Source: Xylographa opegraphella (lineage: Eukaryota). From it: 64,000 nt of DNA. The number at the start of each line of letters is the position of its first letter. Positions within the stretch are counted from its first letter, which is position 1. The notes beneath the pieces were generated by a model. It had not been told where the DNA came from, made no database searches, and saw only the letters and a program-made list of their open reading frames with translations. The translations under genes were made by a program, and so were the position numbers. Of the stretch, positions 1 to 25,084 are shown one piece after another. The stretch spans positions 186,001 through 250,000 of the forward strand of contig JALDZX010000015.1 of the NCBI GenBank assembly GCA_022813865.1, given 5' to 3'.

Positions 1-781
1 GTCTCGGTTCAACATACCTGGAAAGATCGCATGGGCAACGATGGAAGCTCCCGGGTTCATGCTACTTCTCTATATCATGTACAGTCTTCCAAAGCAAATT
101 GGCCTCGATCGCTTGCCAGCAGTCAATTGGGTTATGGCGGCTCTCTTCGTAAGTTATATGCTCTAACGGAGAGACCATGTCTGACAGCCACTCTCGACTG
201 TCCACTACATCTACCGCAGTCTGCTCGCGCCCTTGGTTCTAAATCCCAGCATGTCTCCTATACACCCAACAATATGGGCTTCTGCTCTATCGTTTCAAAT
301 CATCAACGCCACATGTATTGGAGGTTGGCTTGCTGGATACGGACCCACCACTGCCAACGACTGGGCTGGAAGAGCTGTCTTGATCGAGGTGGGTATGATG
401 ATCTGGGCCGCTGGATTTCTCGGTAACGTCTATCACGATGACGAGCTCCGAGAAGTTAGACGGGCAGCTGCCAGAAACCAAGAGAGAAAGGCGAAAAAGC
501 AAGAAGAGAGGGCCGGAAGTAAATCTGTTGACAAAGTTTACGAAGTTCCTCAGAACGGCTTGTTCAGGGCTATTTTATATCCACATTACCTTTGCGAATG
601 GATCGAATGGGGTGGCTTCTGGCTCATAGGGGGCTTGGGATGTGTTCCGGCAAGGTCATTTCTTATCAACGAGATTACAACTATGACACCACGCGCTGTG
701 TCAGGGCGGCGATGGTATATTGAAAGGTTTGGGAGAAAGAAAATTGGTAGCAGGAAAGCTATAATTCCTGGCATTCTGTAG
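1..781 (+). CDS. 3-oxo-5-alpha-steroid 4-dehydrogenase (steroid 5-alpha-reductase family), 5' truncated by window; exons <1-148, 197-781
   Basis: Spliced reading SRFNIPGKIAWATMEAPGF...ALF|TVHYIYRSLLAPLVLNPSMSPIH...GNVYHDDELR...PQNGLF...YPHYLCEWIEW matches the Steroid_dh motifs. Intron 149-196 contains an in-frame TAA and appears to end in CG (see findings). Confidence 0.9.
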
Positions 782-908
782 GAATGCAGGCAGCAGCCTG
801 GCTTGCTCAAAGGCACCTTAAACACAATCTCTATCCTTCAAATTACACATTTTGTGTAATGAACCTTTCAATGTTCCAAGATCTGGATCTCCGTCAGATA
901 TCCTCCCA

Positions 909-2050
909 TTAATTCGAGCGTTTCTTCTTCAATTGCCGCTGTAATGGTTCTATGGTTCTAACCACGGAGACCGCTTTACGGTGTATATTGCTGCTTGCTC
1001 CATCAAGTATGACGTGCCTTAAGCACGGCTTCAGGATCATGCCCAATGTTCCAATGTTACCATCTCCGTCGCACACGACTCTATCACTGGCTTTCAAAGG
1101 ACGCCGCATTGCAACGTCTTTCATACTCATTTCCTCCAGCTGAGTATAGTGTACCGTCTGCTGCACTTCCAATCGAGGTAGCGGTGAGGGTGGAACGAAG
1201 CTATACTGCCTCTGGGAGGATTGCATGATGTATGCCAATCTTATGGCTGGAACAATCACACCGCTGCCAAGGCTTTCGAACCACGCTCCTTGACTGATAA
1301 GACCTGGCATTACGCTATCAAGTGTTCTCGAATCTGCGATGTGGCGTATCTAGCTAGCCAAGCTCCATACATGGGATACTCTGGTGCCGCAATAAAAGAG
1401 GTAAGGGTTTCCGAGCGCCAGTTTCGGATCTTTTGCGGATCTAGTTGTACTCGAAATTGGCCGTCTGTCGTTACCCTAGCAAGGTGACGACTGGCCTCTA
1501 AATGGCTCGAACTGGCTTATGCCTTTCTTAACAGTACGGAAGAATTTATTGAGTGACCGACCAAACAAGGAATGAAATACACCGTCTCGAAACACTAGTG
1601 CATGGAGTGTCCTGTAGATCTCATGGTGGATCACAAGCTCCGCAGCATTAAAATGTTTGAAAAGGAGTTCTCGAGCAATTGCGGTCTCACTATTTTTACA
1701 CACTGTAATGACGATCATCTCGTTTCTCAAGATTTTCTCGATGTCTTCCGTCGTGTCCACCATTACCTCTTCAATCCACGCGAGTAGTGCTTGTGAAATT
1801 TGCTCATACTGGCCTGCGATCTCTGTCCCAGACGTCTGATTGAAAGGCTGTAACTGGCACAGATCCTTCTAACAGGCTTGGAGGCTCCGCTGAAGCTTTG
1901 CTGTTGTTAGCGACTTGCCTGAGTTATCAGCCTTCCTCTTCGCTCCTATGAATGCAGCGTTCTCATCCGGTAGCTGAGCTATGGTGGCCCGAGTCCTCTA
2001 GACTGCTTGCAGGCAGCTTCTGGAGTCTTTCCATTGGCTTGGCGGTCTTC
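909..2050 (-). pseudogene. Decayed fungal hypothetical coiled-coil gene, head-to-head with the Hsp70-like relic
   Basis: Minus strand reads ...LQRSLQAC*KDLCQLQPFNQTSGTEIAGQYEQISQALLAWIEE (TAG at 1869-1871), continues as ORF 1476-1763, breaks, and resumes as ORF 909-1310 ending ILKPCLRHVILDG...RKAVSVV. The 5' boundary is approximate. Confidence 0.55.
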
Positions 2051-22008: not shown

Positions 22009-22974
22009 TCATTTCTCCTTCCTTCTCTCCCTCTCCCCCAAGCCTACCCCCTCCCTCCACGCCGCCGTCACCAACGACGCAAAGCCCACCACCCCACTGA
22101 TGAGCAAGAAATTAAACAATATCCCTGGCCCCCTCGCATCATGCTGTTCTCCCTCCCACTCCATCCGCCTCTTCCTCCTCATCTCCTGCTGCTCCTGCGT
22201 CCACAGATGCCCCTCGCGATCGAAATGCGGCACGTCGCTCCACGCCGTCCACCCGTGCGGGCCTTGTCCCGGCGAGAAACCCCCTCCCGCTGCTCCCCTG
22301 CCAGCCGTCCCACTCGCCTCCCCCGCGCCCGCGGAGGTGCCTCCTCGGAACGCGTTCCCGGCACTCCCCTCCCCTGCCGCTGCCCCGCTCTCGGACGCGG
22401 ACCCTTCCTGCCCTGCGGCGCGCTTCGCGCCCTGCGTGCCCCAGCCGCCGCTGCGGTAGAAACTTGGTGGCGGGCCGTGGAAACGTGTGCGTCGCTTGCT
22501 GAGGCCGCTGGCGGGGCGGGCGCCGAAGGGGGTGCTGGCCGAGGAATGGGAGCCTTGGCGGTGGGGTGGGTGGCTTGCGGCAGTGGAGGGCAGGTGCTCG
22601 CGGTCGTACTTGGAGCGGGAAGAGGGAGAGCCGAGCACGGCGTAGGCGGTGGAGATGGCTACGAAGCGGGTGGAGGCGGTGGGGTCGGTGGGGTTGTGAT
22701 CTGGGTGGTGGATGCGGGAGAGATGGTAGAATTGTCTGTGGGAGTGTTCAGTTTTTGCATGGGGTGGAGTGGGAATTGAGGTAGGGACGCACTTTTTGAT
22801 CGCGGCGGCTGTCGCGTCCGGAGGGACTTGGAGGACCTCGTAGTGGTTCTGGTTATCGTCGCGGAATTGGCGTGAGGTGTGGAAGGTCGGGCTGCCGTGA
22901 TGGGGAGCGAGGCGTGGTGGAGGAAAGGGGCGGTGGAGAGGACATTTCGACAGGTATAGGGAGCGAGGTGGCAT
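22009..22974 (-). CDS. J-domain (DnaJ) protein with probable mitochondrial presequence and C-terminal TM; intron 22736-22792
   Basis: NHYEVL...IKKQFYHLSRIHHPDHN...RFVAISTAYAVL...R.KYD (HPD motif); DVPHFD motif; hydrophobic C-terminal segment. Confidence 0.9.
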   Translation of the reverse strand: MPPRSLYLSKCPLHRPFPPPRLAPHHGSPTFHTSRQFRDDNQNHYEVLQVPPDATAAAIKKCVPTSIPTPPHAKTEHSHRQFYHLSRIHHPDHNPTDPTASTRFVAISTAYAVLGSPSSRSKYDREHLPSTAASHPPHRQGSHSSASTPFGARPASGLSKRRTRFHGPPPSFYRSGGWGTQGAKRAAGQEGSASESGAAAGEGSAGNAFRGGTSAGAGEASGTAGRGAAGGGFSPGQGPHGWTAWSDVPHFDREGHLWTQEQQEMRRKRRMEWEGEQHDARGPGILFNFLLISGVVGFASLVTAAWREGVGLGERERRKEK

Positions 22975-23412
22975 TCCTCATCCCGAGATTTGTAGGTGCT
23001 TGTGTGGAGGTGGAGGTGGGATGCTCAATGGAGGTTGTTTCGAGGCGAGCAGGCATTGATTCGCATCGTTGATGCTGCATGACGTGTGGAGCTGTCTTGG
23101 GAGAGCAGGCCGCCAGCGGGAACAAGCGAAGGCGGAGGACCGCCATGCTTTAACGGGGCTTACTTGGCTTACAGGTAGCTTAGGCGCCTAACCTGCCAGG
23201 CTGTGCCCCTATATTTAGGTGGCCTCTACCTGAAGCACACCTAGAAGATCTAGACTATCTTGTCATCCCACCCCGCGATTCATCACAAAATTTGGTGGGG
23301 TAATTAAGAACTTTCTGTCTGACATGAGATTGTGACTCCGATCTGAATCAAGTCCTTAAGAACGGAGCGTTCCTAGAAAGAGGGAAGCGGGGAGTCTGAA
23401 ACTGCTGGCAAG

Positions 23413-25084
23413 ATGGCTGCTAAAGTTAGTGAAGGTCTCGAGAAGCTCCAACGTATGTGCACACTATCAGGCCCCAAGATCGTGTTCCGTATCTGATCAA
23501 ATACCATGCTAGTGGATCAATCAAAGAAGAGTAACGGAGCTTCGAATGGCACAACACCGGGCGGGATAGATGCGGAGCCTGACGAATCAGACGACGACAA
23601 GGAGGATGATGGCCCCACCGCGGATGCTGGGACCCCTGGAGGTATGTCCCTATACCTATACCACATTGCGGTTCACGCCGAGGTAGTGGTGCTGAGACTA
23701 TGCAGCTGCAAAGAAGAAGAAGAAGAGAAAGCCCAAGAAGAAGAAAGCTGCTGGTGGTGTCCCTAAAGCTCAAAGCGACCCGCCAAGAGTATTGCTCTCC
23801 AACCTGTTCCCCAACGGCCAGTACCCGGAAGGCGAGACGGTCGAATACCGGAACGAGAACAGCTATAGGACCACCAACGAAGAGAAGAGGCATCTCGATC
23901 GCATGAACATTGACTTTCTTAGCGATTATCGCCAAGGCGCTGAGATCCATAGACAAGTCAGGCAGTGGGCGCAGAAGAATATCAAGCCGGGGCAGTCGCT
24001 GACCGAGATAGCAGAAGGCATCGAGGATGGTGTAAGAGCCTTGACGGGGCATAATGGTCTAGAAGAAGGTGACAACATCAAGGGCGGCATCGGGTTCCCT
24101 ACTGGCCTCAACTTGAACCACATTGCGGCGCACTACTCGCCCAATGCAGGAAACAAGACTGTTTTGCAATATGGGGATGTTATGAAAGTCGACTTCGGCG
24201 TGCATGTCAATGGTTGGATTGTGGACAGCGCGTGGACTTTGACATTTGATCCGGTCTACGACAATCTACTGGCTGCTGTGAAGGATGGTACAAACACAGG
24301 CATCAGGGTGGGTTTCGAGTCTCCAGCTCATGTTCTGTCACACAAGCTGAATGAGTCCAACAGGAAGCTGGCATTGATGTCAGGATGAGCGACATTGGCG
24401 CCGCAATACAGGAAGCGATGGAGAGCTACGAAGTCGAGCTCAATGGCCAGACTTACCCGGTGAAGTGCATTCGGAATCTCAACGGCCATGACATCGTTCA
24501 ACATAGCATCCACGGTGGCAAGAGTGTGCCTATCGTGAAAGGCGGAGACCAGACCAAAATGGAGGAGGGCGAAGTCTTCGCGATCGAGACGTTTGGGAGC
24601 ACGGGGAAAGGATATGTCAGGGACGATGTGAGTTGCTTTTGGAATGGGAACCAATGATCGTGCTGATCAAATCTAGTTGGAAACGTCACACTACGCAAAG
24701 AAGCCGGATGCTCCTAATGTCTCATTACGGGTCTCGTCGGCGCGGACTTTGCTGAACGTCATCAACAAGAACTTTGGGACCCTTCCTTTTTGTAGGAGGT
24801 ACCTTGATCGACTTGGGCAGGACAAGTATCTTCTTGGCGTAAGTCTGCACGCTTTTGTGGTTTGTCTTTTCGATAGAGACTGATTATGAGCAGCTGAATA
24901 ACCTTGTTTCGAGTGGAATAGTGGAGTCGTATCCTCCATTGGTTGATATCAAGGGGTCTTACACGGCTCAGTTCGAACATGTGAGTCATGAATCCTGGTA
25001 AACGGTCATTGCTGACACTTCTTCCCGACCATACTGCTTCGACCTACAGTGAAAGAGGTCATCAGTCGTGGAGACGATTATTGA
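23413..25084 (+). CDS. MAP2: Methionine aminopeptidase 2 (7 exons); last intron 24981-25027 appears to be GT-CG
   Basis: Poly-Lys N-terminal tract, [12 protein letters not shown]...[71 protein letters not shown]. Confidence 0.96.

Follow-up and report, generated by a model that had tools for sequence, protein, structure and literature searches.

Introns that begin with GT and end with CG are an already documented kind, rare and real. Among annotated fungal introns, the shares given in PMC7072748 are 98.715% for GT-AG, 1.009% for GC-AG, 0.019% for AT-AC and 0.257% for all others together, and GT-CG counts were not found in the supplementary file of that paper that was searched. A manually corrected annotation of Ganoderma lingzhi holds 19 GT-CG introns, or 0.0206% (PMC11590231), and FlyBase holds 8 among 60,223 introns, 8/8 with RNA-seq junctions and 8/8 with a similar alternative splice nearby (PMC4528330). 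Here we describe two introns, A and B, whose ends read CG in a 64,000-nucleotide (nt) stretch of nuclear DNA, hereafter the window, from a lichen-type fungus, a lecanoromycete near Xylographa. Intron A interrupts a gene for a steroid-5-alpha-reductase-like protein (gene A) and intron B the gene for MetAP2. We tentatively read both as real, recently derived GT-CG introns that would still be ligated at CG, probably less efficiently, a reading to which we would give a little under an even chance.

Introns A and B resemble the known GT-CG introns in that they differ from GT-AG at position -2 only, a single base, with donor G and acceptor G kept; they also lie in protein-coding genes and defeat gene predictors. 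Their frequency sets them apart. GT-CG introns are reported at about 1 in 5,000-7,500 introns, whereas here there are 2 in about 56-78, and these are known from DNA sequence alone. The probability of at least 2 GT-CG introns among 78 is 1.3e-4 at the documented rate of 0.0206%, and 2e-3 when all GT-[C/G/T]G introns in the documented counts are included. A further difference concerns the surroundings of the splice site: the FlyBase introns always stand beside a similar alternative splice, whereas intron B has no usable canonical alternative. Intron A, for its part, has an in-frame AG.

Similar sites have been described in yeast. In prp18-delta cells, alternative 3' splice sites of the BG type (CG, GG or UG) are activated, ACG being among the most used; the non-consensus sites that are utilised have a stronger upstream poly(U), which is reported to help, and an enrichment of exonic adenosines downstream was seen at alternative AG and GAG sites but did not extend to BG sites (PMC10711555). 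Introns A and B are like these BG sites in that the final base is G and the site lies near the branch point, with a pyrimidine stretch before it. The yeast sites, however, are alternative and mostly unproductive, compete with a normal AG and are unmasked by the loss of a fidelity factor, whereas here no site other than CG would be productive, and the cell is presumably wild-type.

Mutations that turn an acceptor AG into CG cause cryptic-site use or exon loss and are a classic form of loss of function. With these, introns A and B share the one-base change and the presence of cryptic AGs nearby, at 186-187, 218-219 and 25048-49. Those mutations are deleterious alleles, whereas the two genes here are intact in other respects, and their conserved frame picks up again exactly at CG. 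U12-type introns, which have the consensus donor /RTATCCTT and the branch sequence TCCTTAAC, offer a different likeness, as their end may be other than AG. That identity is rejected for introns A and B, whose donors (GTAAGT and GTGAGT) and CTGAC branch are U2-type. RNA editing and repeat-induced point mutation (RIP) were also rejected on sequence grounds, given the U2-type signals and an A-to-C transversion.

Two introns ending in CG

The placement of the window near Xylographa is illustrated by the largest MetAP2 exon, which is 96-97% identical to the proteins of X. vitiligo (P0121) and X. carneopallida (P0122), and by the steroid-reductase-like exon of gene A, which is 85% identical to an X. 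soralifera protein. An earlier, sequence-only reading of this DNA had described two introns of a CG|AC type and proposed that they form a class. A regular expression made from that description and run over both strands of the window matched exactly twice, at 149-196 (48 nt) and at 24981-25027 (47 nt), both on the plus strand, and at both sites the reading frame resumes directly after CG; the two introns are thus as they had been described. They share phase 0, a GTRAGT donor, CTGAC followed by exactly 11 nt and a YCG|AC junction. The 11-nt tail is AGCCACTCTCG in intron A, where the next exon opens with ACT, and ACTTCTTCCCG in intron B, where it opens with ACC. The host genes are unrelated, one belonging to PF02544 (steroid-5-alpha-reductase-like) and the other encoding MetAP2.

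Apart from the acceptor, the splicing signals are ordinary. The donors, GTAAGT at 149 and GTGAGT at 24981, agree with the canonical U2 donor of fungi (GTRNGT), and CTGAC agrees with CTRAY, its branch A standing at a distance of 12 nt from the final base of either intron. With the junction placed where homology requires, the ends are CG at 195-196 in intron A and CG at 25026-25027 in intron B, and so depart from AG. The features of both genes are collected in Table 1.

Table 1. Positions of exons, introns and alternative acceptors of gene A and MetAP2 in the window
Feature	Position	Strand	Details
Gene A, upstream exon	2..148	+	Cut by window start; ends ...VNWVMAALF; homologues read ...ANWTMAALF
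Intron A	149..196	+	48 nt, phase 0; donor GTAAGT 149-154, CTCTAAC 161-167, CTGAC 181-185, end CTCG
Alternative in-frame AG inside intron A	186..187	+	9 nt upstream of CG; gives 39-nt intron and adds Pro-Leu-Ser
Gene A, last exon	197..781	+	TVHYIYRS... to stop TAG 779-781; PF02544, Pfam E=9.2e-20
Next AG 3' of intron A	218..219	+	35 nt from branch A; frameshift, 117-aa product
MetAP2 gene (built model)	23413..25084	+	7 exons, 446 aa; other five introns 60, 64, 56, 49 and 55 nt
Intron B	24981..25027	+	Last of six, 47 nt, phase 0; donor GTGAGT 24981-24986, CTGAC 25012-25016, end CCCG
MetAP2, last exon	25028..25084	+	18 residues and stop; 18/18 identical to P0121 and P0122
Sole further AG around intron B	25048..25049	+	22 nt downstream, 34 nt from branch A; TGA directly after FEH

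Spliced at CG, the MetAP2 model is identical to the X. vitiligo protein at 425/446 positions with 0 gaps and is aligned to residue 446 of 446. The five other introns of the gene all have TAG or CAG ends. At the junction, FEH|T is found in 4/8 fetched MetAP2 homologues, and the C-terminus is kept to the last residue in the closest solved structure, 8onz_A, with further entries also matching query residue 446. After its donor, intron B contains no AG. The AG ending at 25049 was rejected as an acceptor, since its use loses the 18 conserved residues of the last exon and requires a distance of 34 nt from branch A, an extreme outlier among branch-to-3' splice site distances that otherwise span 5-23 nt. 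Retention of intron B is excluded because its 47 nt are not a multiple of three and contain a stop. For both introns, boundary shifts by +1/+2 and AT-AC-like or GT-AC readings were tried by hand and discarded, as they altered conserved residues or the frame.

Gene A encodes a 3-oxo-5-alpha-steroid 4-dehydrogenase-like protein (PF02544) with 740 homologues at E<=0.001, and its CG model aligns with two of them, P0002 and P0008, with 0 gaps. The junction is present in spliced form in 6/14 fetched homologues; 6/6 of these read LF|[TSA][IVL]HY, with no insertion, and the solved 3-oxo-5-alpha-steroid 4-dehydrogenase 7c83 has the same motif spacing (LWQLHY vs LFTIHY). Two in-frame stops, one at 164-166 and one at 182-184, rule out that intron A is retained. 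The sequence-only reading had overlooked the in-frame AG at 186-187. A model spliced there has 3 extra gap positions against 5/5 homologues and would need CTCTAAC as its branch, only 17 nt from the donor, where the minimum among 56 introns predicted in the window (see below) is 27 nt; the intron itself would be 39 nt long against a minimum of 42 nt. We therefore disfavour this acceptor, which places Pro-Leu-Ser in a conserved motif and takes both intron length and donor-branch distance out of range. The next AG, ending at 219, was rejected as it shifts the frame. At both sites, then, the junctions are placed at CG because homologues align gap-free only with splicing there, and CG is favoured because the alternatives are worse, costing an added Pro-Leu-Ser, a frameshift or the last 18 residues of MetAP2.

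Two side observations concern the start of the window. Frame 1 contains no stop between the window start and 426, intron A included, and the 117-aa out-of-frame product of splicing at AG219 would meet no immediate stop. A tblastn search with P0241, a 118-aa protein of the open reading frame (ORF) type, gave 92.6% identity over window positions 2-163; it reads into intron A with another sequence (VSPIL vs VSYML) and its source is evidently a close relative rather than the very sequence studied here.

Intron background and further candidates

The background was taken from an ab initio gene finder that accepts AG acceptors only and combines a 3-periodic Markov coding model with position weight matrices (PWMs) for donor, branch and acceptor. 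Its coding model was trained on the 28 ORFs with Pfam hits among 137 ORFs of 110 aa or more. The finder is rough, recovering 20-22 of the 28 Pfam ORFs and merging some neighbours, and its census is AG-only by construction. Depending on penalties it placed 56-75 introns, which bears out the order of magnitude of the roughly 78 counted earlier, though not the exact figure. Introns of the 56-intron run have a median length of 57 nt; the shortest measures 42 nt, and the shortest donor-to-branch distance is 27 nt. Distances from branch A to the 3' end run from 5 to 23 nt with a median of 11.5, the sole outlier being the 34-nt solution that an AG-only finder forces on MetAP2; CG at 12 nt from branch A falls at the mode of this local distribution.

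Most of the features that had been offered as marks of a class are modal for introns of the window. Phase 0 applies to 27/56 introns, and the branch distance of introns A and B, 12 nt, compares with the median of 11.5. Ordinary AG|AC junctions, which had been noted before, were seen in 3/56 introns: those in the DENN gene (10259-10304) and the DUF2408 gene (62352-62401) were found again, and one in a porin gene (20540-20584) was added. The exonic AC had been proposed to license the acceptor. In both proteins, it is part of a conserved Thr codon, and because this codon explains the AC, no role in splicing is needed for it; judged from these sequences, AC should not count as a licensing signal.

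The difficulty that such introns pose to gene finders, which had been anticipated, was evident in our own. The AG-only finder ended MetAP2 at FEH, directly followed by a stop, or read through to FEHVSHESW and a stop, depending on the run. When non-AG acceptors were allowed, a penalty of 3 produced 14 non-AG introns, mostly spurious and with intron B one base off, and a penalty of 6 produced none. Homology is needed to find such junctions because coding potential alone cannot place them.

A strict scan for further AG-less introns asked for a GTRNGT donor with a good PWM score, a CTRAY branch site, no AG 6-22 nt after branch A, an intron end in G 8-16 nt after branch A, open flanks and a blocked read-through. 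There were 6 hits at 4 loci in the window, two of the loci being introns A and B. The third falls within the uninterrupted DENN ORF, in a different frame, and the fourth, at 28327-28423 on the minus strand, has a canonical CACTAAC...CATAG acceptor upstream; both were rejected. The strict scan thus found no third AG-less intron in the window, weak-signal introns and those not ending in G being outside its coverage. A loose version returned 267 raw combinations, mostly inside continuous ORFs, and was set aside. The word class, as used in the sequence-only reading, is hence not borne out: n=2, and the strict scan of the window shows no recurrence beyond the founding cases.

Over 200 simulated versions of the window (first-order Markov), the mean count was 0 for the full pattern and 0.06 for its YCG version, against an observed 2, and 0/200 simulations reached the observed count; the pattern, however, was written after both cases were seen. 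Because it is post hoc, the real support lies in both junctions falling exactly at the positions that homology requires, rather than in the simulation. The window contains only 5 GTRAGT-N15-45-CTGAC pairs, introns A and B included, and AG introns that carry both GTRAGT and CTGAC amount to 2/55 or 3/63 in the census. The probability that two randomly hit introns would both fall in the GTRAGT+CTGAC set is about 0.001-0.006. Such an enrichment for strong signals speaks for function, as it would be expected if only introns with optimal signals tolerated CG. The second-step factors named in the sequence-only reading are not in evidence here, a Pfam scan of the 137 ORFs of at least 110 aa in the window having returned no Prp8, Prp18, Slu7 or U2AF1 family match.

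Relatives and rival explanations

Relatives were compared through their protein models, not their DNA, so the behaviour of gene predictors matters. Augustus, snap, GeneMark-ES and GlimmerHMM are not known to use any but canonical splice sites. The annotation of X. vitiligo was made in funannotate with these four, all ab initio, as its only predictors (PMC9098629), and its MetAP2 reads exactly FEH|TILLRP at the junction of intron B. As an exact FEH|TILLRP comes from a canonical-only pipeline, X. vitiligo very probably has AG at this site. In the MetAP2 of X. carneopallida, a single additional Val stands at the same junction (FEH-V-TILLRP). No GT-AG pair in the window's sequence yields that residue, so the X. 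carneopallida sequence must differ there, and the splice region of intron B seems to vary within the genus.

At the junction of intron A, the Lambiella insularis protein (P0042) carries a 17-residue insertion, VNSSLGLSLNILTDGLQ, which looks like a retained 51-nt intron with a GTN start and an end in Gln (CAR), that is, a canonical CAG. Among the ORF-type fragments of other lecanoromycetes that run through intron A, back-translation gives AG|ACG for P0242 and P0245 and is ambiguous for P0244 and P0246, as AGA and CGA both encode Arg. The gene-A model of X. soralifera (P0001) is truncated to 176 aa and starts just downstream of intron A. This is weak evidence on the state of its acceptor because faulty models are common in such annotations, 3/8 MetAP2 models from comparable ones being truncated, read through or misjoined. 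Since the relatives' models imply ordinary AG at both sites (X. vitiligo with FEH|TILLRP and Lambiella with an insertion ending in Gln), the CG ends appear derived rather than an old conserved trait of the lineage, and on balance both CG states look derived and young. Models with retention, read-through or truncation at or near introns A or B are those of Lambiella (P0042), Loxospora (P0137), Hypocenomyce (P0130), Toensbergia (P0145) and X. soralifera (P0001).

We propose a model where introns A and B are ordinary short U2-type introns in which a derived single-base change has turned TAG or CAG into YCG. Branching would proceed normally on the strong donor and the CTGAC branch site, and in such short fungal introns the first step would not need AG. 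For exon ligation, the spliceosome would take the site at the usual distance of 12 nt, behind the pyrimidine run, where the -1 G is kept and no competing AG lies within normal reach. Splicing efficiency would probably be lowered. We infer ligation at CG, and its efficiency, from the bases themselves, from the junctions that homology requires and from the absence of usable AGs, all three of which are observed. In mechanistic terms each site is probably a rare, tolerated splice-site variant. On this reading, the two introns are new instances of the rare, documented GT-CG kind; a dedicated class is not demonstrated.

Several points weigh against this model. Exon ligation is normally blocked, or at least strongly impaired, once the A at position -2 is gone. 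The frequency found here, 2 of 56-78 introns, is about 100 times the documented GT-CG rate, and to explain such an excess as a plain rare event one must invoke luck coupled to selection from a large number of scanned windows, or else suppose that the rate is raised in this genome. Wild-type yeast uses BG sites at a low level only (PMC10711555), and the FlyBase introns, 8/8 of which stand beside a similar splice, point to minor or alternative sites rather than sole constitutive ones (PMC4528330). Intron A has an in-frame AG as an alternative. The enrichment for strong signals is also partly a matter of ascertainment, because AG-less introns are recognisable only when donor and branch site are clear.

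If the bases are real, the acceptors could instead be dead and the alleles hypomorphic or broken, gene A being rescued by the AG at 186-187 with its added Pro-Leu-Ser while MetAP2 ends at FEH or remains unspliced. We consider this unlikely, although it is ordinary biology. AG-to-CG is the classic loss-of-function splice mutation, mutations with an in-frame cryptic site are the likeliest to survive selection, and intron A has a perfect CTCTAAC 21 nt upstream of its in-frame AG. A second type of methionine aminopeptidase exists in fungi and would make the loss of MetAP2 tolerable. Fission yeast can use branch-distant AGs with helper factors (PMC9508853), and as the CG states look recent, the undecayed state of the exons is no argument against broken alleles. 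Yet the rescued intron of gene A would fall outside the predicted minima (39 against 42 nt in length, 17 against 27 nt in donor-branch spacing), and its product would carry Pro-Leu-Ser, proline included, in a motif that keeps its spacing from 7c83 to fungi. In MetAP2, the loss of 18 residues conserved in solved structures would probably destroy the enzyme, and it is unlikely that 64 kb of an otherwise intact, gene-dense region would have taken two inactivating hits of one type independently. An error of sequencing or assembly, the true bases being A (or a CAG having lost its A) and both introns ordinary, strikes us as very improbable. Nothing in the window verifies individual bases, both sites appear to be canonical in relatives, and both changes are of the same type, A-to-C (or T-to-G after GTC on the other strand), which could reflect a context-specific error. 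The window has no N, however, and the gapless alignments show both genes without frameshift or premature stop. Two hits on some 78 acceptor A's among 64,000 bases would need a very high error rate, with visible damage elsewhere, and errors would not prefer the introns with the strongest signals; the earlier judgement that two random errors on acceptor A's are improbable holds up.

The explanation put forward in the sequence-only reading was a lineage with relaxed second-step fidelity, in which CG (perhaps also TG or GG) acceptors, with a fixed branch distance and an exonic AC, make up a constitutive class at percent frequency. It is tempting to speculate along these lines, as 2 of 56-78 is far above the documented 0.013-0.021% (PMC11590231, PMC4528330), which favours the proposal somewhat, and as the strong donor, CTGAC, 11-nt spacing and AC are common to both introns. 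We nonetheless regard such a class as quite unlikely. There are two cases, the strict scan revealed no third BG acceptor in 64 kb, and the other census introns end in YAG or AAG (by construction), none of them needing rescue. In close relatives, the MetAP2 of X. vitiligo and the gene A of Lambiella imply AG, the AC is accounted for by a conserved Thr codon, and a lineage with percent-level CG acceptors was not found in our literature search. The truncated gene-A model of X. soralifera is what a canonical-only predictor would give if that gene were AG-less too; the 3/8 faulty MetAP2 models leave this a weak argument. Tolerance of CG (or BG) as the sole productive acceptor in optimally signalled short introns would let the -2 A-to-C change drift to fixation, fitting the derived state, and could bring such acceptors to percent level; we hold this version, too, to be improbable. 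If true, second-step fidelity would have been relaxed in nature, in a way that is otherwise seen only when yeast carries prp18 or prp8 mutations. The accompanying statement that non-YAG acceptors are known as rare events or from yeast fidelity mutants agrees with PMC10711555 as far as it goes, but GT-CG introns are also a documented natural kind (PMC11590231, PMC4528330).

If ligation at CG is true, two conserved genes would have no productive acceptor other than a non-AG one, and introns A and B would show how far AG can be replaced, in a wild-type spliceosome, by branch distance together with a pyrimidine run and the retained -1 G. Together with a genome-wide count, this could reveal naturally relaxed 3' splice-site fidelity and a permissive second step in lichen fungi. 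If the bases are wrong or the alleles broken, the finding is ordinary. Either way, gene finders restricted to canonical sites cut such genes short or break them up. Artefacts will be present in sets of orthologues and in calls of gene loss for these fungi, as is to be expected because the public models of relatives show truncation, read-through and retention at exactly these introns.

Neighbouring genes and other reading frames

Downstream of MetAP2 (23413-25084), and like it on the plus strand, lies a gene of the fatty-acid/sphingolipid desaturase type (PF00487) at 26145-27384. Three Aspergillus entries of 844-858 aa (P0199, P0207 and P0240) combine PF00557, PF08557 and PF00487. This suggests that the MetAP2 and desaturase neighbours have seemingly been fused in those Aspergillus annotations and that, to judge from the domain content, the gene order may be conserved across classes.

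A multi-intron gene at 27868-29121 on the minus strand has exons too short for the Pfam scan of ORFs of at least 110 aa. Its product, which includes MSVELDPPELGFRR... and KTTAPKQYCVRPNSGRIE..., resembles by eye what we take to be the family of VAMP-associated (MSP-domain) proteins, and the introns that we read in it all have AG ends.

Long stop-free antisense ORFs of 200-475 aa overlap real genes at 21766-22977, 45859-47471 and 34482-35591, on both strands. One example, of 337 aa and with no Pfam hit, lies opposite an ORF with a DnaJ domain. These antisense ORFs misled our first coding model and would likewise mislead gene calls based on ORFs.

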